NCBI GenBank assembly: GCA_028286905.1
Contig: JAQBQP010000002.1
Coordinates: 245,458 to 309,457 of the forward strand
Length of the DNA: 64,000 bases
DNA from: Candidatus Doudnabacteria bacterium
Lineage (GTDB): Bacteria; Patescibacteriota; Doudnabacteria; UBA920; VMFF01
Direction: 5' to 3'
The notes beneath the pieces are model-generated. The model made no database searches. It was not told where the DNA came from and saw nothing but the letters and a program-made list of their open reading frames with translations. Position numbers and translations under genes: made by a program. Each line of letters starts with the position of its first letter. Within the stretch, counting starts at the first letter, position 1. Shown here one piece after another: positions 9,269 through 55,124 of the stretch.

Positions 9269-10894
9269 ATGCAGAACCGCATCGCTCGCATCGTTTTCGC
9301 GATCGTGTGCTCTCTCGCCTTTGTCGCTCAAAACGCTGTGGCCCAAGCAAAGGTTGCAGGCGTTGAGGTGACGAAGCAGGGAGTCACGGTTCGTTCCTGG
9401 CGCTTCCTCGATCCCGAGGAGCTGTTCAAGGATTACCACAACGCGCCGCAGGCACAGATCGTCAATCTGACTTGTGCCGACACGGCGCAGGCGGGAGCGA
9501 TCATTAACGCCGAGCCGCATACCTTCGGTGGGATGCTGCAGCGGCTGAATGCGTTGCGGGCAGGGTGCAAGAACACCATGCAGGGCAGCTTCACCCGCAA
9601 CGTCCGCTTGGTCACCGCCAGCGAGATGTCGGCGGCAGAACTGCTCGGCTACAATCGCGTCGATGCCAAGACCTACACCACGAACCGGAGCCCCTGGAAG
9701 CAGAAAGGCTTCAAGACGGTGAAGGAACTGTGCCTGTACGCCAAGAGTGACAAGGCGTATCAGAATCTCTTGGTGTCGAAGGACAAGGAAGAGGGTGCAG
9801 AAGTTCTGCGCTACCTTTCGAATTCCTGCGAGACGCTCGATCCGCATGTCTCGGAGATCGAAGCCCCAATCGGGGCGTTGGTCGCTGAAGATCTCGGACT
9901 GAGCGGCGCGGCGCACAATGTCTGGCTGACCGAGCCGGTGAAGCTGGTTCAGGTCGAGACCGAAGACGGCGCCGTCCGGTGGTTCAAGTACAGCTGTGCG
10001 AACGAGGATTTCCCCGTGCTGCGCGTCGAGTACACGATCTCGTACGAGGTACCCGCGCCGAAGTTCGCGCGGTTGGCGATCAGCAAGCAGGTTCGCCTCT
10101 GGGATCACGCCGCAACCAAGCGTTATTCCGACGAAACGTGGGCGAAGTCGGTTACGGTCGATTCGACGCAGGCGTCGCAGTTGATGCCGGTGCAGTATCT
10201 GGTGGTCGTGAAGAGCGTTGGTGACGCAACGGCAACCAACGTACAGGTTCGCGACGAGCCCTCGGTTCGCGACGGACGCTGGTTGATCCTCATTGACCCT
10301 AACTCGCCGTTGGCGAATCCGGTCAATGCAGGCAGCCTGCAGCCGGGCGACTCGCTGGTCTATTTGGTTCATGCTACGGCGCGATCCGGGTGGGTTGGCA
10401 CGGAAACGAATCATGCATTCGCAAAGGCAGACAATGCCTCTGAGGTGCAAGATGTCGCTCAGGTGATTCGGCAGAAAGCGCCCGCGCCTGTCGCGGTTGC
10501 AGAAGCCGGGTTCTACTGCGGGCGGGGTTTCAAGGAAGCCGCTGTTTGTGTCTTGGCTACCTGCGCTACCGTTACGGTGGTCGGGGACGCCGCTGGCTAC
10601 AAGAACATCTGCGGCTTTCCACTCGGCGGCACGGAAGAGAAGACCGGCAACAAGCCGGTCGGTCAGCCGATCACGCAGCTCGATGTCATCTCCTTGCGGA
10701 GTGGCGCGAGCTTAAGCGTCGGCATCAGCCCGTCGCCAGTTGCATCCTCTCAGATGCAGCTGCGTAACTCCAACCTCATCCCGATACTTCCCAGTGTTGG
10801 ATCGCGTCTGAGCATTCGCTCATACCAGTTCAACGCCGGCGTGTCGGTAGGTTTCAACAAGATTCAGTCAGTACTCGGCAAGTTCGCGAAGTAG
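9269..10894 (+). CDS. secreted Cys-rich protein with DUF11-like repeat, encoded in a GC-rich foreign-looking island
   Basis: Signal peptide (MQNRIARIVFAIVCSLAFVAQNAVAQA). DUF11-like segment (YLVVVKSVGDATATNVQVRDEP). About 60% GC against about 38% in the flanks. GAGGT RBS 8 nt upstream of the ATG. Confidence 0.6.
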   Translation: MQNRIARIVFAIVCSLAFVAQNAVAQAKVAGVEVTKQGVTVRSWRFLDPEELFKDYHNAPQAQIVNLTCADTAQAGAIINAEPHTFGGMLQRLNALRAGCKNTMQGSFTRNVRLVTASEMSAAELLGYNRVDAKTYTTNRSPWKQKGFKTVKELCLYAKSDKAYQNLLVSKDKEEGAEVLRYLSNSCETLDPHVSEIEAPIGALVAEDLGLSGAAHNVWLTEPVKLVQVETEDGAVRWFKYSCANEDFPVLRVEYTISYEVPAPKFARLAISKQVRLWDHAATKRYSDETWAKSVTVDSTQASQLMPVQYLVVVKSVGDATATNVQVRDEPSVRDGRWLILIDPNSPLANPVNAGSLQPGDSLVYLVHATARSGWVGTETNHAFAKADNASEVQDVAQVIRQKAPAPVAVAEAGFYCGRGFKEAAVCVLATCATVTVVGDAAGYKNICGFPLGGTEEKTGNKPVGQPITQLDVISLRSGASLSVGISPSPVASSQMQLRNSNLIPILPSVGSRLSIRSYQFNAGVSVGFNKIQSVLGKFAK

Positions 10895-36526: not shown

Positions 36527-36911
36527 CGGCCTCAAGTAATCTAGATAATCGCTGCTTGGTTTACCAAGTAGAGGAAAGTCCGAACACCCCTAGGTGCGAA
36601 CTTAGGAAGCAAGTTGCCAGGAAATCTGGCCGGGTATACCCAGGTTTGAATGGTTCACGTGACTGTTCAAGAATGGATTAAGCCCAGGGATAGTGCAACA
36701 GAAACATGTCGCCGATGGCCGGTCGTAAGATCGGATCAGGTAAGATTGAAATCGTGCGGTAAGAGCGCACGCGTATGTGCAGAGATGTACTGCGGTGAAA
36801 ACCCAACTTGGTGCAAGGCCAAATAGGCCTTGATCGTAAGATCAGGGCGGGTTGGCTGCTTAGACAGATGATTATCCTCGACAGAATTCGGCTTACCGGG
36901 TTGCTTGAGGC
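36527..36911 (+). ncRNA. rnpB: RNase P RNA (bacterial type A-like)
   Basis: Universal motifs GAGGAAAGTCCG, AGTGCAACAGAAACAT, GCGGTAAGAGCGCAC, CAAGGCCAAATAGG, ACAGAATTCGGCTTAC. P1 pairing between GCCTCAAG (5') and CTTGAGGC (3'). Confidence 0.85.
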
Positions 36912-46397: not shown

Positions 46398-46430
46398 GAC
46401 CGGCAAGAGAGAATTCTCTTGCCGGTCTTT
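46398..46430. terminator. perfect 14-bp palindrome (GACCGGCAAGAGAG-aattc-TCTCTTGCCGGTC) centred on an EcoRI site
   Basis: Seen directly. Followed by a weak T-run (TTTG). Lies at the boundary between hpf and the GC-rich islet. Confidence 0.55.
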
Positions 46431-46449: not shown

Positions 46450-46854
46450 TCAGGCGGTTTGCAACCGCAGATTGGGGTGTGCGCCATCCCGAGCGAGCTC
46501 GACATGCTTGATCAGCATCGCTATGTGCCCGAACGGTTTGGGCAGAACATGCTGGAAAAGCTTCAAGCTGAACGCCGCGACTTCGCCGCCGGTAACTCCG
46601 ATGGCATAGCCACGCCGGGTCGCCATCTTGTAGATGGTGGCAATTTCGTTGGCATTCATGTCGCCGAACGAGAAGTTGCTGACGATCAGGCAGTCGAACT
46701 CGTTGTGCTGGATTTGCTGCCTTGCCTCGGCGCCGTTCTGGACGATCGTGATGTTATCGCGCGGCAAACCCTCACCCCGCGCTAGGATTCGCGGATACAT
46801 GCTATTCATGCTTGGATCGCGCGAGATGATCAGGATGTTAATCGAATCAGACAC
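46450..46854 (-). CDS. receiver-fold (CheY-like) pseudo-receiver protein encoded in a GC-rich islet
   Basis: GTG start 9 nt after a perfect AGGAGG. Receiver-like layout (ILIISRD, then DCLIVSNFSFGDMNANEI, then AIGVTGG, then KPF). The phospho-acceptor position appears to be Asn. About 57% GC. Confidence 0.5.
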   Translation of the reverse strand: MSDSINILIISRDPSMNSMYPRILARGEGLPRDNITIVQNGAEARQQIQHNEFDCLIVSNFSFGDMNANEIATIYKMATRRGYAIGVTGGEVAAFSLKLFQHVLPKPFGHIAMLIKHVELARDGAHPNLRLQTA

Positions 46855-47059: not shown

Positions 47060-49735
47060 ATGGCATTTCTAGAAAAGATTTTTGGCGGCAACAAACAGGT
47101 TGTTTCGAAGTTACAGAAAGTTGTCGATCAGATTAATGATTTAAAACCTAAATACGAAGCTTTAAGCGAGGAACAAATTAAAGAACAAGTTCAAGCTTGG
47201 AAGACTCTGTTAAAAGATAAAGATTATGATCAGCAAAAAAAGACTTTGGACGAACTTCTTCCAGAGGTTTTTGCGATAACCAGAGAAGCGGCAAAGCGCA
47301 GCATTGGCCAAAGCCACTATGATGTTCAGCTGATTGGTGGAATAACCTTGCATCGTGGACAGATCGCAGAAATGCGTACTGGTGAAGGAAAAACTTTAAC
47401 TGCAACTTTGCCTTTGGTTTTGAACGCCCTAACTGGACGTGGTACGAACTTGGTAACCGTTAACGATTACTTGGCTCGATGGCATGCTTCTTTAATGGGG
47501 CCGATTTATCACGCCTTGGGTTTAAGCGTGGCCAGTATTCAACATGAAAAATCTTTTTTGTATGATCCGAATTATCAACCAGAACAAGAAGAGATTGATC
47601 GCTTAGAAGGCGAAGTTCAGGGTTTTGTTTTGGATGTAAAGCATATGCGTTCAGTTACCAGAAAAGAAGCCTACGCCGCGGACATTACTTATGGGACTAA
47701 CAACGAGTATGGTTTTGATTATTTGCGCGACAACATGGTTGGCAATGTTAATCAAATGGTGCAGCGCGAACAGCATTTTGCAATTGTCGATGAAGTCGAC
47801 AGTATTTTAATTGATGAAGCCAGAACGCCTTTAATTATTTCAGCGCCGGATGCGGACCCAACCGATAAATATTATCAGTTTGCAGAGCTTGTTAAAAAGT
47901 TAGATAACGGTGCTGATTTTGTTGTTGATGAAAAGAAAAAAGCAGTTTCGCTTACAGAAGAAGGAATTGCAAAATTAGAAAAACTTTTGGGTGTTGAAAA
48001 TATTTATGAACAAGAAGGACTGTCGACCGTGCACCATATCGAGCAGGCTTTGCGTGCTCGCACTGTCTTGTTTGAAAGAGATACGCAGTACGTTGTTCGC
48101 GACGGCGAAATTATTATTGTCGATGAATTTACTGGCCGCTTAATGTTTGGCCGCAGATATTCTGATGGATTGCACCAAGCGATTGAAGCTAAAGAAGGCG
48201 TAAAGATCCAACAAGAAAGCAAAACTTTAGCAACAATTACATTCCAAAATTATTTCAGAATGTTTAAAAAACTTGCAGGCATGACCGGTACCGCAAACAC
48301 TGAAGCTGAAGAATTTTACTCCATTTATAAATTAGATGTAGTAGAGATCCCAACCCATAAGCCCCTAGTGCGTATTGATAAACCGGATGCGGTTTATAAA
48401 AATGAGTCCGGAAAATTTGCTGCGATTACTCGCGAAGTTCAAACTCGCCACAAAAAAGGTCAGCCAATGCTGATTGGTACAGTTTCAATTCAAAAAAATG
48501 AACTGCTTGCTGAGCACTTGCGTAAAGCCGGTTTGCAGTTTGAATTGTTGAATGCCAAAAACCATGAACGCGAAGCACATATTATTTCTCAGGCCGGCCG
48601 TTTCGGAGCTATCACTGTGGCGACAAATATTGCTGGTCGCGGGGTCGATATTTTGTTAGGCGGTAACCCGATTGATCCCGAAGAAGCCAGACAAGTGCGC
48701 GAAGCCGGCGGTTTGGCAGTAATTGGTACCGAAAGACATGAATCTCGCCGTATCGACAATCAGTTAAGAGGACGTTCTGGACGTCAAGGCGATCCGGGCT
48801 CTTCACAATTCTTTGTTTCAGTAGAAGACGATTTAATGCGTTTATTTGGTGGCGATCGTTTGCACAGCATGATGGAACGTTTGGGAATCCCTGATGATCA
48901 GCCAATTGAAAACGGATTAGTTTCTAAATCTATCGAATCTGCACAGAAGAAAATTGAAGGCTTGAACTTTGATACTCGTAAACATGTTTTGGAATATGAC
49001 GATATTATGAACAAGCAGCGCGAAATTATCTATAAGAAGCGCCGCGAATGGTTAGCAGAAGATGCAAATTTAAAAGAACAAATATTGGAACTGATTGATG
49101 AAGAAATTCGTCAGATTATTAGCGCACATTTTCAAACTGAAAATGAATTACAAACGCTCTTTGATTCCTTAAATATGATTTTTCCAGTTGGCAATACTGA
49201 GGCCGCAAAGATGCAAGAGATAAGTAATCAAGCTGGTAACGCAGAATTTGCTTTGATTGATTTTGCGATTGATCTGGTGCATCAGCGTTATGAAGAAAAA
49301 GAAAAAGCCATGCCAGAAACGGGGGTAATGCGTCAGATTGAAAAGGCGACTGCGTTACAAAGTTTAGACACGCTTTGGATGGAACATTTGGATACGATGG
49401 AACATCTTCGTGAATCTGTTGGTTTGCGGGGCTATGGTCAGCGCGATCCATTGGTAGAATACAAACGCGAATCTTTTGATTTGTTTAAACGGCTGTTAAT
49501 TGCAATTGATAAAAATATCGTCAACACAATTTTTCATATTGGAATTGTGCCGCAGCAAGTGGCGCCGATTGATTTGGTGGTTAATTCTGCACCGATCGCT
49601 CAGGCTTTGAATGAAGACGGTGGCGAAGTCGGACGCAATGATAAATGCCCTTGCGGATCTGGACGAAAGTGGAAGAAATGTGGAATGATCAATTCTCCCG
49701 AACATCAACAATTTATGGAGAAGAAAAATGCATAA
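47060..49735 (+). CDS. secA: preprotein translocase ATPase SecA
   Basis: DEAD-like motor motifs (MRTGEGKT, VDEVDSIL). C-terminal zinc-binding CPCGSGRKWKKC. Confidence 0.95.
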   Translation: MAFLEKIFGGNKQVVSKLQKVVDQINDLKPKYEALSEEQIKEQVQAWKTLLKDKDYDQQKKTLDELLPEVFAITREAAKRSIGQSHYDVQLIGGITLHRGQIAEMRTGEGKTLTATLPLVLNALTGRGTNLVTVNDYLARWHASLMGPIYHALGLSVASIQHEKSFLYDPNYQPEQEEIDRLEGEVQGFVLDVKHMRSVTRKEAYAADITYGTNNEYGFDYLRDNMVGNVNQMVQREQHFAIVDEVDSILIDEARTPLIISAPDADPTDKYYQFAELVKKLDNGADFVVDEKKKAVSLTEEGIAKLEKLLGVENIYEQEGLSTVHHIEQALRARTVLFERDTQYVVRDGEIIIVDEFTGRLMFGRRYSDGLHQAIEAKEGVKIQQESKTLATITFQNYFRMFKKLAGMTGTANTEAEEFYSIYKLDVVEIPTHKPLVRIDKPDAVYKNESGKFAAITREVQTRHKKGQPMLIGTVSIQKNELLAEHLRKAGLQFELLNAKNHEREAHIISQAGRFGAITVATNIAGRGVDILLGGNPIDPEEARQVREAGGLAVIGTERHESRRIDNQLRGRSGRQGDPGSSQFFVSVEDDLMRLFGGDRLHSMMERLGIPDDQPIENGLVSKSIESAQKKIEGLNFDTRKHVLEYDDIMNKQREIIYKKRREWLAEDANLKEQILELIDEEIRQIISAHFQTENELQTLFDSLNMIFPVGNTEAAKMQEISNQAGNAEFALIDFAIDLVHQRYEEKEKAMPETGVMRQIEKATALQSLDTLWMEHLDTMEHLRESVGLRGYGQRDPLVEYKRESFDLFKRLLIAIDKNIVNTIFHIGIVPQQVAPIDLVVNSAPIAQALNEDGGEVGRNDKCPCGSGRKWKKCGMINSPEHQQFMEKKNA

Positions 49736-50201
49736 AGTATATTTTGCGGGAGCAATAACCGGAGATCGTTCGCGCGCCTCGATATTCAAAGATATTATTC
49801 AACATATTCAGAGTTTGGATAAAAAAGTACTCACCGAACATTTTCAACTTCAGAATCCGAATACTTTTTTGGCAGAATTTATTAATAAAAAATATGAAGA
49901 TCTTTTGCCAGAAGACATAGAAAAACAAGACACGGCTTGGATAAATGAAGCCACCCACTTGGTTGCGGAAGTTTCGACAGCTTCTACCGGAACTGGCAGA
50001 GAAATCGAGTATGCTCGTAGCAAACATCTTTACGGCCACCCGGAAGCAAAAATATTGTGTTTATACGAAGAGGGTTCTAGGGCTAGCGCAATGATTACGG
50101 GTATGACCCCAGAGCGATATCCGAGTGTAAGAGTAAGGGCATACAAAAATTTAGAACATTTGAAAGAAATTCTAAACGAATTTTTTAACCTGACGGTTTA
50201 G
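49728..50201 (+). CDS. 2'-deoxynucleoside 5'-phosphate N-hydrolase (DNPH1/Rcl-like, nucleoside 2-deoxyribosyltransferase superfamily)
   Basis: VYFAGAITGDR, VLTEHF, AEVSTASTGTGREIEYA and ILCLYEEGSRASAMITGM align with the conserved blocks of DNPH1. Confidence 0.65.
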   Translation: MHKVYFAGAITGDRSRASIFKDIIQHIQSLDKKVLTEHFQLQNPNTFLAEFINKKYEDLLPEDIEKQDTAWINEATHLVAEVSTASTGTGREIEYARSKHLYGHPEAKILCLYEEGSRASAMITGMTPERYPSVRVRAYKNLEHLKEILNEFFNLTV

Positions 50202-50215
50202 CAAATGCTGGAAGA

Positions 50216-50590
50216 TTGAATTTAAAAATGACTAATCATATTCTAAATTTTAGGGAAGTAGACAAGAAGACTTTCGAACTGATTCGGGATGGAGTTAAAA
50301 AGGTTGAAACTAGAGCTGGTTCAAAAGAGTATTTATTAATTCAAGCGGAAGACACTATAACATTTGTGTGCGGCAGTGAAAACGTAACGAAGAAAGTGAT
50401 TAAAGCTAATCGATTTAAAAGTTTTACGGAGCTATTTAATTGGTACAGACCCTGGGATATAAATCCTGACATCATGCGTGGTCCGACCAGTGAATCAGAA
50501 ATGATAGATGTTTATAGGTCATTTCCAGGGTATCCAGAAAGAATAATGGAATTTGGAATTCTAGCATTTAAATTAGAAAATATTAATTAG
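50216..50590 (+). CDS. ASCH domain (PUA-like) protein
   Basis: ASCH-like N-terminus (FELIRDGVKKVETRAGS). Small beta-barrel size. Real start may be the Met at 50228. Confidence 0.55.
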   Translation: MNLKMTNHILNFREVDKKTFELIRDGVKKVETRAGSKEYLLIQAEDTITFVCGSENVTKKVIKANRFKSFTELFNWYRPWDINPDIMRGPTSESEMIDVYRSFPGYPERIMEFGILAFKLENIN

Positions 50591-50601
50591 AAAGGAAAGA
50601 T

Positions 50602-50919
50602 ATGGCAAACGATTTTCAGAAAAAACAACCAACAAAAAACGAAAAAATGTTTTACGATATGGCAATGAGCTTGGAAATGATTGATCGCAGGCTTTGGACG
50701 ACGTCATCTTTTGTAAGCGCTTTAGCAATTCTTGCTAATGTCGAACCAGAAAAAGTTGCGCGCTTATTAACTACAGACATGAATAAGATCCAAGATTTTA
50801 GCAAAAAGATCAACGACGAAATCAATAAAATTGAAGCTGAAGAAAAAGAAAAGAACGGTTCAAGCGAACAAGTTCAAAGTTCTACTCAACCAGGACATGA
50901 AGGCCATAACCACGCCTAG
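50602..50919 (+). CDS. hypothetical small protein
   Basis: 105 aa with a His-rich C-terminus (HEGHNHA). Confidence 0.4.
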   Translation: MANDFQKKQPTKNEKMFYDMAMSLEMIDRRLWTTSSFVSALAILANVEPEKVARLLTTDMNKIQDFSKKINDEINKIEAEEKEKNGSSEQVQSSTQPGHEGHNHA

Positions 50920-50938
50920 ATAGTTAAATACAAACAAA

Positions 50939-51415
50939 TTGAAATATAAAAGTAAAAATTATTGGTTGTTAAAATCAGAAGCGGAAATGTATTCGATTGA
51001 TGATTTTAAAAAAGACCAAGATACTGTTTGGACTGAAGTCCGTAATTACCAGGCACGCAATTTTCTGCGGGACAGTATCAGCGTCGGTGATTATTTTTTC
51101 TTTTATCATTCTAGCTCAGAACCTTCTGGCATTGCCGGGGTCGGCAAAATATTGAGAACCAAAATTGGTGATCCAACAGCGCTTGATAAAAAAAGTGAAT
51201 ATTTTGACCCGAAGGCTACTAAAGAGCACAATCCTTGGTCTACTGTTGAAGTGCAATTTGTAGAAAAATTTCCTGCTGTGATTACGCTTGCTGAGGTTAA
51301 GCAAAATAAAAAACTTTCAAAAATGGTTGTCGCTCAAAAAGGCAGCCGTCTTTCTGTGCAGCCTGTTAAAGCCGACCAGTTTGAAGAAATTATGAATATG
51401 GCTTATGGACATTAA
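50939..51415 (+). CDS. EVE domain (PUA-like, DUF55) protein
   Basis: EVE pattern (NYWLLKSEAEMYSIDDF ... DYFFFYHSSSEPSGIAGVGKI ... FDPKATKEHNPW). Confidence 0.7.
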   Translation: MKYKSKNYWLLKSEAEMYSIDDFKKDQDTVWTEVRNYQARNFLRDSISVGDYFFFYHSSSEPSGIAGVGKILRTKIGDPTALDKKSEYFDPKATKEHNPWSTVEVQFVEKFPAVITLAEVKQNKKLSKMVVAQKGSRLSVQPVKADQFEEIMNMAYGH

Positions 51416-51989
51416 AAAAAAGCAAAAACTCTTAGAGGTTGTTGCTGAAGAAATAGAACAGTGTCCAATTTGTAAAAAGAACACAATTGGCAAAGCGGTG
51501 CCCGGAGAAGGGAATGCTGATGCCGATATTATGTTTATTGGCGAAGCTCCAGGTAAAAACGAAGCTGAAACCGGTCGGCCGTTCATTGGCCGAGCAGGCA
51601 AAATGCTTCGTGAAGGAATCGCTCAGATTGGATTGAGTGATCAAGATGTTTTTATCACTAGTCCAGTAAAAAGATTGCCGGTACATACCACTCCGACCCC
51701 AGAAGAAATTGCGCACGGCAAAACTCATTTAATTAAACAGTTTGATATTATCGATCCGAAAGTAATTGTTTTGCTGGGACGGGTTGCGGCTTTAGCGATG
51801 TTAGAGAAAAATATTTCGGTAATGAAAGAACATGGTAAATTCTTCCGTAAACCTGACGGCAGATTATACATGATTATGATGCATCCAGCGGCACCTTTAT
51901 ATTCTGGTAATTTGCGTGAAGTTTTTTTCAAAGATTTTAAAAAACTAAAAAAACTACTGGACTTAGATGCAAAAGCAATTAAGAAATAA
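51405..51989 (+). CDS. uracil-DNA glycosylase, family 4
   Basis: GEGNADADIMFIGEAPGKNEAETGRPFIGRAGKML is the canonical family-4 UDG motif. N-terminal CxxC. Confidence 0.85.
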   Translation: MDIKKKQKLLEVVAEEIEQCPICKKNTIGKAVPGEGNADADIMFIGEAPGKNEAETGRPFIGRAGKMLREGIAQIGLSDQDVFITSPVKRLPVHTTPTPEEIAHGKTHLIKQFDIIDPKVIVLLGRVAALAMLEKNISVMKEHGKFFRKPDGRLYMIMMHPAAPLYSGNLREVFFKDFKKLKKLLDLDAKAIKK

Positions 51990-52752: not shown

Positions 52753-54234
52753 ATGAGAAAAAACCTCAGATTATACCTAACGTTCATATTCATTTTGTTG
52801 ATAGCAGCATTCTCGATCTATATCGACTTGCCACAGGGTAGCAAAATCAGTTTGCCGAAAATAGGTATTGCAAAACGTGAATTTAAACCACATTTAGGAT
52901 TAGACCTTCAAGGTGGAACTCATTTAGAGTATCAGGGTAACTTACAAGATATTCCTGCAGACAAGAGAAAAGACGCAATGGAATCCGTTCGCTCCGCGAT
53001 TGAACGCAGAGTATTTTTCTTTGGCGTTCAAGAGCCTTTAGTAGAGACATCTGGTAGCGATCGAATTATTGTTGAGTTGCCTGGTATTACAGATATTAAT
53101 CAAGCGGTAAGCGTAATCGGCCAAACGCCATTCCTTGAATTTAAAGAGCAAAATCCAAGTCCAACCGGACAGGTTGTCGATGGAAAAGTAGTTATTGATC
53201 CGAACAGTCAGTGGAAATCTACTGGCTTAACCGGAAAAGATTTGTCCTCGGCAACGGTTGAATTTTCTCAACAGGATAATACGCCGCAAATTAGTTTGCA
53301 GTTTAATAGTGAAGGTACAAAACTTTTTGGCGAGATTACTTCTAGAAACTTAGGCAAGCCCGTAGCTATTTTCTTAGATGGAGCGCCGCTTTCAACTCCA
53401 ACTGTGCAAAGTGCAATCACCGATGGTAAAGCAATCATTACAGGACAGTTTACCGTAGATGATGCGAAGCAATTAGTCTCCAGACTTAACTCCGGAGCTT
53501 TGCCGGTACCAATTAAACTTATTTCCCAACAGAACGTTGGTGCAAGTTTAGGTAAAGATTCAATCCAAAAGAGCGCCGTAGCAGGTATTATTGGTCTATT
53601 GTTGATCGTAATATTTATGATTATTTACTACCGATTGCCGGGCGTACTAGCAGTGCTGGCTTTGGTAGTTTATGCATTATTATCCTTCGCAATTTATAAA
53701 ATTGGTATTTCTGTAACCGCAGTATTTCTGGTTGGACTGTTCTTTGTGCTGGCGCTAACCTCCAGTTGGTGGTTTGGAGTAATCGCAGTCTTGTCTTACT
53801 TAGGCCTGATGCTTGCGGGTGGTTTGCATCCAGTGACTTTAACTTTAGCTGGTATCGCTGGTTTTATTCTTTCTATTGGTATGGCTGTTGATGCAAATAT
53901 TTTGATTTTCGAAAGAACTAAGGAAGAGTTAAGATTAGGCAAAGACGTGCCCCAAGCTTTAGAAGATGGATTCAATCGAGCTTGGCTTTCAATTCGCGAC
54001 TCAAACGCGTCGAGCTTAATTACTACTGCAATTCTATATATGTTCGGCACTCCAGCAATTAAAAGCTTTGCTGAAACTTTGGCAATTGGTATTATTATTT
54101 CTTTGTTTACTGCAATTACTGTAACTAAAACTTTCTTGAGAATGTTTATCGGACATAATATTTTAGCGCACCCATGGCTGTTCGGAGCTTCCAGAGAAAA
54201 GAAAACAGAATTAACTACCACAGAGGAACTCTAA
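52753..54234 (+). CDS. secD: protein translocase subunit SecD
   Basis: LGLDLQGGTHLEY motif. Large periplasmic domain followed by 6 TM helices. Confidence 0.85.
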   Translation: MRKNLRLYLTFIFILLIAAFSIYIDLPQGSKISLPKIGIAKREFKPHLGLDLQGGTHLEYQGNLQDIPADKRKDAMESVRSAIERRVFFFGVQEPLVETSGSDRIIVELPGITDINQAVSVIGQTPFLEFKEQNPSPTGQVVDGKVVIDPNSQWKSTGLTGKDLSSATVEFSQQDNTPQISLQFNSEGTKLFGEITSRNLGKPVAIFLDGAPLSTPTVQSAITDGKAIITGQFTVDDAKQLVSRLNSGALPVPIKLISQQNVGASLGKDSIQKSAVAGIIGLLLIVIFMIIYYRLPGVLAVLALVVYALLSFAIYKIGISVTAVFLVGLFFVLALTSSWWFGVIAVLSYLGLMLAGGLHPVTLTLAGIAGFILSIGMAVDANILIFERTKEELRLGKDVPQALEDGFNRAWLSIRDSNASSLITTAILYMFGTPAIKSFAETLAIGIIISLFTAITVTKTFLRMFIGHNILAHPWLFGASREKKTELTTTEEL

Positions 54235-55124
54235 TGCTAAATATCATCAAACATTATAAATTTTGGTTCGGCGTTTCAACCGCATTGTTGATTGCAAGTA
54301 TTATTTCTTTAGCGATTTTCGGTTTAAGATTCGGTATTGATTTTAAAGGCGGCACTGTAACTCAGCTTTCATTTGCAAAAGCGCCAAATTTGGATCAGAT
54401 CAAAGCAGTTGTTGCCAAAGATACAGATGGCGCACAAATTCAGTCCGCTGGCACTAGCGATGTAATTATAAAAACTAAACCTTTAGAAAAACCTGAACAT
54501 GATAAGCTTGAAGCAGACATCAAAGCGCAAGTAGGGGATTTCACCGAGAAATCTTATACTTCGATTGGGCCGATCATCGGACAAGAACTTCGGTCTAAAG
54601 CAATTTATCAATTACTGCTTGTCGCTTTAGGTATTGTTTTATACATCGGCTATGCATTCCGTAAGGTGACTAAGCCTATTACCGCATGGAAATTTGGTTG
54701 GGCCGCAGTGATTGCGCTTGTTCATGATTTGTTCATAGTTGTTGGTTTGTTTTCGATCCTTGGACATTTCTTTAAAGTTGAAATTGATTCTTTGTTTGTA
54801 ACTGCTTTGCTGACAGTGTTAGGTTTCTCTGTTCACGATACGATCGTGGTATTCGACAGAATTAGAGAGAACTTACGTACCGAAGCCGGACAACCGATCG
54901 ATTACATTGTTAACCACAGTATCAACCAGACAATCGTTCGCTCATTAAACACTTCTTTAACAGTTTTGTTTGTCTTGCTTTCCTTGTTGTTGTTCGGCGG
55001 TGTAACAATTAGATATTTTGTATTAGCATTGTTCATTGGTATTATTGCCGGAACCTACTCATCTATTTTTATCGCTTCGCCAATCCTTGTGATTTGGGAA
55101 CGCTGGCAGTCTAAACGCGCATAA
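54234..55124 (+). CDS. secF: protein translocase subunit SecF
   Basis: GIDFKGGTVTQL motif and 6 TM helices. Start set to the ATG at 54234 (TAATG overlap with the secD stop), not the upstream in-frame ATG. Confidence 0.85.
   Translation: MLNIIKHYKFWFGVSTALLIASIISLAIFGLRFGIDFKGGTVTQLSFAKAPNLDQIKAVVAKDTDGAQIQSAGTSDVIIKTKPLEKPEHDKLEADIKAQVGDFTEKSYTSIGPIIGQELRSKAIYQLLLVALGIVLYIGYAFRKVTKPITAWKFGWAAVIALVHDLFIVVGLFSILGHFFKVEIDSLFVTALLTVLGFSVHDTIVVFDRIRENLRTEAGQPIDYIVNHSINQTIVRSLNTSLTVLFVLLSLLLFGGVTIRYFVLALFIGIIAGTYSSIFIASPILVIWERWQSKRA

Follow-up and report, generated by a model that had tools for sequence, protein, structure and literature searches.

The locus studied here raises the question of whether five small genes that lie side by side between secA and secDF form one dedicated pathway or act independently of each other. 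It is located on a 540-kb contig of Candidatus Doudnabacteria, a lineage of the Candidate Phyla Radiation (CPR), of which a stretch of 64 kb was analyzed (hereafter the window). An earlier reading of the letters, made without database searches (the sequence-only reading), had described five consecutive plus-strand genes at positions 49728-51989, and open reading frames (ORFs) were found at exactly these coordinates. In order, they encode a DNPH1/Rcl-like protein (g1), an ASCH-like protein (g2), a small helical protein (g3), an EVE protein (g4), and a family-4 uracil-DNA glycosylase (UDG; g5). The sequence-only reading saw a coherent function in this set, namely the sanitation or sensing of non-canonical pyrimidines, with phage defense as a possible role. 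Our analysis leans, on balance, toward a different explanation, in which small housekeeping genes that act independently stand in a syntenic run peculiar to the lineage and do not make up a dedicated multigene system. Only a loose thematic link between NUDIX, g1, and the UDG is plausibly functional, and this coupling is one that we infer. Regarded as a "system," the five-gene cluster is ordinary, a case of conserved synteny in a compact genome; what is new here is modest and consists of an uncharacterized prokaryotic family of DNPH1-like proteins that is associated with NUDIX, and of a family-4 UDG predicted to lack its iron–sulfur (Fe–S) cluster.

Related loci, identified below by L numbers, were collected with a g1 profile run on genome contigs (22) and metagenome contigs (41), and through exact look-ups of homologues of g1 and of EVE. 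The Doudnabacteria relatives of g1 are 67-83% identical to it, and a changing subset of genes lies between secA and secDF in these loci. The order is SecA-NUDIX-g1-g3-EVE-UDG-SGNH in L001 and SecA-NUDIX-g1-g3-cytidylyltransferase-like (CTP_transf)-EVE-UDG-SGNH-SecD-SecF in both L023 and L024. L025 carries g3-cytidylyltransferase-like (CTP_transf)-g1-EVE-UDG-SGNH-SecD-SecF, and L026 reads SecA-g1-NUDIX-x-UDG-SecD-SecF, with neither EVE nor SGNH. Two loci found through more distant EVE homologues have the arrangements SecA-EVE-x-UDG-SecDF (L029) and SecA-EVE-x-SecDF (L074). The constant feature is the Sec frame, whereas the small genes are present or absent independently of each other (L026, L029, and L074). 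The locus as a whole is set in a conserved MurB-HPF-SecA...SecDF core synteny, and the window SecA is 80% identical to that of L001 (tblastn). In L029, EVE and UDG are separated by a "hypothetical" of 143 aa, which is Arg/Cys-rich and probably a spurious ORF. The SecD proteins of L029 (6905-8956) and L074 (5348-7396) are ~680 aa long and carry inserted peptidyl-prolyl isomerase (Rotamase) domains.

In other CPR lineages, outside Doudnabacteria, g1 is found as SecA-g1 or g1-SecD (L013, L014, L052, and L061), and the same direct adjacency, after secA or before secD, is seen in L042, L054, and L059; this distribution suggests that SecA-g1-SecDF is an old gene order in CPR bacteria. When the non-Doudnabacteria g1 loci were clustered at 85% identity, 37 informative loci were obtained, in which neighbors were counted within 700 bp of g1. 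NUDIX was counted in six, SecA or SecD in six, and a UDG in one, and none of the 37 had EVE, ASCH, or g3 within this distance. A Pfam scan of 103 g1-flanking ORFs from 16 CPR/DPANN genomes likewise placed NUDIX at the top (10 ORFs in six loci), and it also returned dCTP-deaminase-like proteins and DUF84 NTPases (two each). A strict NUDIX-box regular expression had recovered six NUDIX ORFs versus the 10 of Pfam and was replaced by iterative hidden Markov model searches. The NUDIX protein of L001 aligns end to end with human MTH1 (E 5e-44). MTH1/NUDT1-like NUDIX genes lie between secA and g1 at L001:2799-3287 and L023:5194-5667, and their products share 56% identity. The recurrence of NUDIX neighbors, MTH1-like ones included, supports a nucleotide-pool role of g1. 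No MTH1-like NUDIX counterpart was found within the 64-kb window.

The spacing from g1 to g5 ranges from -11 to +19 bp, the secA stop and the g1 start overlap by 8 bp, and g5 is overlapped by 23 bp by an SGNH/GDSL esterase gene, which is followed by SecD and SecF (Table 1). The tight gene string thus extends past g1-g5, to SecA upstream and to the esterase, SecD, and SecF downstream. Moreover, 56 of the 60 genes in the window lie on the plus strand. Intergenic gaps have a median of 9 bp, and 43 of the 59 do not exceed 30 bp. Because co-directionality and tight packing are window-wide, the g1-g5 arrangement by itself is uninformative about an operon. A terminator scan returned no terminator-like site between the genes of the SecA-to-SecF string, and promoter-like sites numbered 33 against a shuffled mean of 24.7 (standard deviation 5.0), which is not clearly above expectation. 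The SGNH esterase, which belongs to a functionally unrelated family, keeps its position in L001, L023, L024, and L025.

Table 1. Coordinates of the Sec frame and the genes within it, numbered from the first letter of the window, and of UDG orthologues in related loci
Feature	Position	Strand	Evidence
SecA, upstream frame gene	47060..49735	+	ORF; orthologous position with SecA Pfam domains in L023, L026, L029
g1, DNPH1/Rcl-like, 157 aa	49728..50201	+	PDB phmmer, family profile, residue conservation
g2, orphan ASCH-like, 124 aa	50216..50590	+	Sub-threshold Pfam ASCH, PDB PH0355/PF0455
g3, small conserved three-helix protein, 105 aa	50602..50919	+	Homologue family, AlphaFold2
g4, standalone EVE (PUA-like), 158 aa	50939..51415	+	Pfam EVE, PDB 2EVE
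g5, family-4 uracil-DNA glycosylase, 194 aa	51405..51989	+	TIGR00758, PDB 4ZBX
SGNH/GDSL esterase, N-terminal hydrophobic segment	51967..52722	+	Pfam Lipase_GDSL_2 E 1.7e-16
SecD and SecF, downstream frame genes	52753..55124	+	ORFs; SecD/SecF Pfam domains at orthologous positions
UDG orthologues	L001:4571-5167, L023:7735-8337, L025:2637-3212, L026:4081-4674, L029:6196-6804, L063:5350-5910		

The g1 protein, which is 100% identical to NCBI locus JWO40_537, scores 22.1 bits against the Pfam profile Nuc_deoxyrib_tr, under the cut-off of 28.8. In a single-sequence phmmer search of the PDB, the significant matches were DNPH1/Rcl only (E 2e-6), and a profile of 31 family members likewise recovered DNPH1 only (E 5e-15). 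All 12 PDB sequences with E<0.01 for this profile are DNPH1/Rcl, with no nucleoside 2-deoxyribosyltransferase among them, and in sequence terms g1 is nearer to DNPH1 than to the nucleoside 2-deoxyribosyltransferases. The residues known from structures of human DNPH1 (PMC10603095) are found again in g1. The catalytic triad Y24, D80, and E104 corresponds to Y5, D68, and E92, with full invariance across the 31 members for D68 and E92 and conservation of at least 90% for Y5. The helical element E55/H56 is matched by E37 and H38 within an "LTEH" motif that is invariant, including L35, and the phosphate-binding S98 and S128' are matched by S86 (invariant) and S120 (at least 90%). In human DNPH1, H56 contacts the pyrimidine O2 (PMC10603095), and its equivalent His38 is among the invariant residues of the g1 family. 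Among the grounds on which the sequence-only reading said that it would fall was a lack of the catalytic Glu/Asp positions, but the Tyr, Asp, and Glu of DNPH1 are all present in g1. We consider g1 a convincing, predicted DNPH1/Rcl-like 2'-deoxynucleoside 5'-monophosphate N-glycosidase.

Comparing g1 with mammalian DNPH1/Rcl (2KHZ, 4FYH, 8OS9, and 9DA1), the Tyr/Asp/Glu triad, the Glu-His element, and both phosphate-binding serines are shared. However, the identity appears low, judging by a single-sequence phmmer E of ~1e-6, and g1 belongs to a prokaryotic CPR/DPANN family. Human DNPH1 hydrolyzes dNMPs with a preference for hmdUMP. The position of human R30 is occupied by Thr in g1 and by Arg in most of the g1 family, and the loop from LTEH to the Asp is longer in g1 than in DNPH1. 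Most of the family members recovered belong to CPR bacteria or to DPANN archaea (Pacearchaeota), and distant relatives at ~30% identity occur in metagenome-assembled genomes of Ignavibacteria and Bacteroidetes; no viral relatives were found in an IMG/VR scan. One member from a JGI metagenome, P0080 (256 aa), has a 110-aa N-terminal extension. The JGI label of this extension as a fused MazG NTP pyrophosphatase was not confirmed by Pfam (E<=10) or PDB and is taken here as no more than a hint.

Judging from residue conservation, g1 would act as DNPH1 does, with Glu92 attacking C1' and Asp68 donating a proton to the leaving base. Glu37/His38 would lend assistance, and the products would be the free base and deoxyribose 5-phosphate (dR5P). 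Its recurrent partner across CPR/DPANN appears to be a NUDIX pyrophosphatase acting on deoxynucleoside triphosphates (dNTPs), MTH1-like in the sister Doudnabacteria, and the two enzymes might carry out a two-step disposal or salvage, from a non-canonical dNTP to the monophosphate (dNMP) and on to base plus dR5P. In the present genome, the secA-secDF slot lacks the NUDIX gene. A comparable two-step removal has been demonstrated for DutZ/DmtZ of 2-aminoadenine (Z) phages, which combine a dNTPase with a DNPH1-like enzyme (PMC12884076). DmtZ/DutZ place a DNPH1-like dNMP N-glycosidase beside, or fused to, a dNTP pyrophosphatase, and g1 has its NUDIX neighbors; this likeness is one of two-step gene logic and not of sequence comparison. 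Unlike DmtZ/DutZ, g1 is cellular and not viral, and its partner is a NUDIX protein, absent from the window, and not a dUTPase-like one.

Among the remaining products, g5 was assigned to UDG family 4 by TIGR00758 (153 bits, cut-off 125.3) and by its match to PDB 4ZBX (E 1.6e-34). It contains both motif A (GEAPG) and motif B (HPAA), and on this basis g5 is a family-4 uracil-DNA glycosylase. Like Thermotoga TM0511, Sulfolobus tokodaii 4ZBX, and Thermus thermophilus 1UI0, it has motifs A and B and scores above the TIGR00758 cut-off. However, g5 and its orthologues differ from typical family-4 UDGs in that two of the four cysteines that would ligate a [4Fe-4S] cluster have given way to other residues. 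The two that are left in g5 are C20 and C23 of an N-terminal CxxC, and those of "VKCRPP" and "ACxxYL" are lost; the sites aligned to the third and fourth Cys of 4ZBX and TM0511 carry other residues in g5 and likewise in five orthologues. From the loss of ligands, CPR bacteria seem to have a lineage of family-4 UDGs without the cluster, and g5 would illustrate, in a minor but clean way, how a repair enzyme can lose its cofactor, removing uracil from DNA without an Fe–S cluster. The L001 UDG has one Cys at the CxxC positions, and the L063 UDG has none there and a Cys elsewhere.

The g4 protein matches Pfam EVE (PF01878) along the whole profile (positions 1-145 of 145; 170.7 bits) and PDB 2EVE with an E of 2.4e-44. 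Its homologues number 5247 at E<=1e-10 and reach 53-60% identity in Bdellovibrionota and Chlamydiae. By these matches, g4 belongs to the canonical standalone EVE proteins, a housekeeping type that is highly conserved, and consists of one full-length domain like PSPTO5229 (2EVE) and THYN1; it may bind modified nucleic acid. Homologues align from about residue 3, which favors a TTG start at 50939 over the annotated Met17; the GenBank product is 142 aa versus the 158-aa ORF, and its start has probably been placed too far downstream. Outside the Sec frame, EVE homologues were found beside CYTH plus methyltransferase genes, a glycosyltransferase gene, DapF plus CstA, Dus, and a Y1 transposase plus UbiA. 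In L076 (4001-5472), the tRNA-dihydrouridine synthase (Dus) gene shares 4 bp at its start with an EVE gene whose product is 61% identical to g4, which places a g4-type EVE in an RNA-modification context. The SecA/UDG/SecDF surroundings of g4 differ from the ZapAB-ssrS-FAU1 and restriction-system contexts of the EVE proteins surveyed by Bell, Wolf and Koonin in 2020, who mention neither a glycosylase or UDG nor NUDIX as an associate of EVE (PMC7641849).

The sequence-only reading had made a call for each of the five proteins. While its calls of a DNPH1-like protein, an EVE protein, a family-4 UDG, and a small hypothetical protein held, the ASCH call for g2 drew weak support. The g2 protein scores 17.3 bits (E 0.0083) against Pfam ASCH (PF04266), below the gathering threshold of 21.2, and it matches PH0355 (E 2.7e-4) and PF0455 (E 2.6e-3) over its full length in the PDB (structures 2Z0T and 1S04). 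Its octapeptide G26-V-K28-K-V-E31-T-R33 fits the ASCH definition GxKxx[E/T/S]xR (bioRxiv 10.64898/2026.02.27.708502) and aligns to GKKKIEGR of PH0355. We regard the ASCH assignment as weak. A word-indexed search of 5.8 billion proteins returned only g2 itself, and an AlphaFold2 model from the single sequence was unusable for judging a PUA-like beta-barrel fold (mean pLDDT, the predicted local distance difference test, 44). At 33.3%, the GC content of g2 is the lowest in the block, compared with 39.3% for the window. No ASCH gene was present in any syntenic relative inspected; in L001 and L023, g1 and g3 abut and leave no room for one, and in L026 the ASCH position is taken by NUDIX. Its orphan status, lowest GC, and absence from the relatives' loci point to g2 as a recently acquired, genome-specific insertion. 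The GenBank product for g2 is shorter, 120 aa (the ORF starts at 50216).

With respect to function, the sequence-only reading had cast ASCH as a reader of modified bases. The ASCH proteins with a GKER motif that have been tested are enzymes as well, namely N4-acetylcytidine (ac4C) amidohydrolases acting on nucleoside or tRNA (bioRxiv 10.64898/2026.02.27.708502), a role that goes beyond reading; another ac4C amidohydrolase is YqfB (PMC6972931). The g2 protein resembles the GKER group (T. thermophilus TthASCH, Pyrococcus ASCH, and EOLA1) in its GxKxxExR motif and full-length alignment, but differs from it in the sub-threshold Pfam score and in having no detectable close relatives. Judged by its motif, g2 is most plausibly an N4-acylcytidine-type amidohydrolase, an enzyme being likelier than a DNA "reader."

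The g3 protein has no family in Pfam or NCBIfam. Its homologues comprise 31 representatives, 20 of them at E<=1e-10, and AlphaFold2 predicts three helices with a pLDDT of 84; g3 is, from its conservation and predicted fold, a real small helical family. A Foldseek search with this model found no fold match in the PDB, nor did a sequence-profile search there yield a significant hit. Weak Pfam matches to Mlp and SOGA look like low-complexity or coiled-coil noise. The g3 gene adjoins g1 in L001, L023, and L024 and lies two genes upstream of g1 in L025. The C-terminal tail is variable and His/Asp-rich, reading HEGHNH in the window and HxGHDHxH in most homologues (P0217-P0245), with a long HDHNHDH repeat in one of them. 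From this tail, g3 may be a putative metal-binding protein.

Several observations weigh against a reading in which the five genes act independently. The g1...EVE-UDG order is kept in four Doudnabacteria loci (L001, L023, L024, and L025), which bears out in part the neighborhood conservation expected by the sequence-only reading. A UDG-g1 pair occurs in a different context in L062 and L063, beside an integrase and a Fic protein, and some functional linkage between g1 and the UDG could be reflected in this pair. The block is also richer in nucleotide and nucleic-acid enzymes (NUDIX, g1, ASCH, EVE, and UDG) than a naive random draw would give, an enrichment that was judged after the fact. Finally, the sample comprises ~60 loci, and most of the metagenome loci come without taxonomy. 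The same conserved order and the same pair, arising independently in L062 and L063, would be expected of a coherent "non-canonical pyrimidine hygiene" operon, in which a single pathway keeps the genes together, with g1 destroying nucleotides of the dUMP and hmdUMP types, ASCH and EVE recognizing or processing modified pyrimidines, and the UDG clearing DNA. Such an operon would also agree with the NUDIX pool sanitizer that joins the block in relatives, with the invariant His38 as the counterpart of a residue that contacts pyrimidine O2, and with the deacetylation of ac4C, as nucleoside or in tRNA, by GKER ASCH proteins (bioRxiv 10.64898/2026.02.27.708502). However, the same five-gene set was not found across independent lineages, and g1...EVE-UDG recurs within Doudnabacteria only. 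ASCH is unique to this genome. EVE stands beside g1 in none of the 37 non-Doudnabacteria loci, and L026 has lost it. The EVE/UDG slots of L029 and L074 contain no g1, and the SGNH and cytidylyltransferase-like genes interleaved in the block are unrelated. Moreover, EVE is of a housekeeping type that elsewhere stands beside Dus, methyltransferase, and DapF genes. With an ASCH singleton, independent gene losses, and unrelated genes in between, the coherent function proposed for the five genes did not hold up, and we consider the hygiene operon rather unlikely. What survives of the pool-sanitation proposal is its application to g1, through the recurrent NUDIX neighbors, and weakly to the UDG, but not to the five-gene set.

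The CPR and DPANN lineages scavenge nucleotides. It is conceivable that g1 is mainly catabolic, releasing dR5P and bases from scavenged dNMPs for auxotrophic CPR/DPANN cells, and that its position in the block is historical. The family's main occurrence in CPR and DPANN (Pacearchaeota) and the recurrence of SecA-g1 or g1-SecD adjacency with no nucleotide gene nearby fit this explanation. However, the commonest neighbors of g1, namely NUDIX, dCTP-deaminase-like, and DUF84 NTPase proteins, act on dNTP pools, as would the MazG-type protein of the unconfirmed JGI label on one member's N-terminal extension, and no DeoC-type aldolase is among the 25 most frequent g1 neighbor families. We hold a mainly salvage role to be unlikely, a shade more so than the hygiene operon, and sequence data cannot decide whether g1 mainly sanitizes (8-oxo-dGMP, dUMP, and hmdUMP) or mainly salvages. 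Much less credible is an anti-phage defense island directed against DNA containing hydroxymethyluracil (hmU), uracil, or hypermodified bases, or against its precursors. The idea draws on EVE and ASCH domains in restriction and toxin-antitoxin contexts of other organisms (PMC7641849) and on DNPH1-like enzymes in phage nucleotide warfare (PMC12884076). However, a search of six proteins against PADLOC-DB 2.0 gave no match at E<=0.01, the locus encodes no effector of the nuclease, ATPase, or toxin kind, g1 has no relatives in IMG/VR, and g4 is closest to the housekeeping standalone EVE 2EVE. The locus lies inside the conserved MurB-HPF-SecA...SecDF core synteny, and no integrase or repeat hallmarks were noticed among the ORFs and scan results from 46-56 kb, repeats not having been searched for specifically. 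The phage-defense role suggested by the sequence-only reading is thus abandoned here as very improbable.

A further reading can be entertained tentatively. The NUDIX (or MazG-type) dNTP pyrophosphatase and g1 may be an uncharacterized CPR/DPANN counterpart of the eukaryotic pool-sanitizing pair MTH1 plus DNPH1, together destroying non-canonical deoxynucleotides irreversibly, and Doudnabacteria would add the cluster-less UDG and possibly EVE; we regard this as a doubtful possibility. Such a "scavenged-nucleotide hygiene" island, if real, would suit cells that import pre-formed and often damaged nucleotides. Should the NUDIX/DNPH1-like pair prove functional, ultrasmall bacteria and archaea that are auxotrophic for nucleotides would possess a dedicated two-step disposal of the damaged or modified deoxynucleotides among those they scavenge, and the pair would provide a prokaryotic model for DNPH1, an anticancer target.

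Some further features of the window were recorded. A GC-rich palindrome with a 13-bp stem lies at 46398-46427, 3' of the HPF gene, and is adjoined by a 134-aa minus-strand ORF (46450-46854) with no Pfam match, one of the four minus-strand genes of the window; L023 has a minus-strand 126-aa gene, also with no Pfam match, in the same place. An ARAGORN search of all 64 kb returned no tRNA genes. A bacterial class A RNase P RNA is located at 36533-36911 (168.6 bits). Between 8001 and 12000, the GC fraction rises to 0.47-0.50 compared with ~0.39 elsewhere, and in this region a 541-aa plus-strand ORF (9269-10894) is overlapped by a 402-aa minus-strand ORF.

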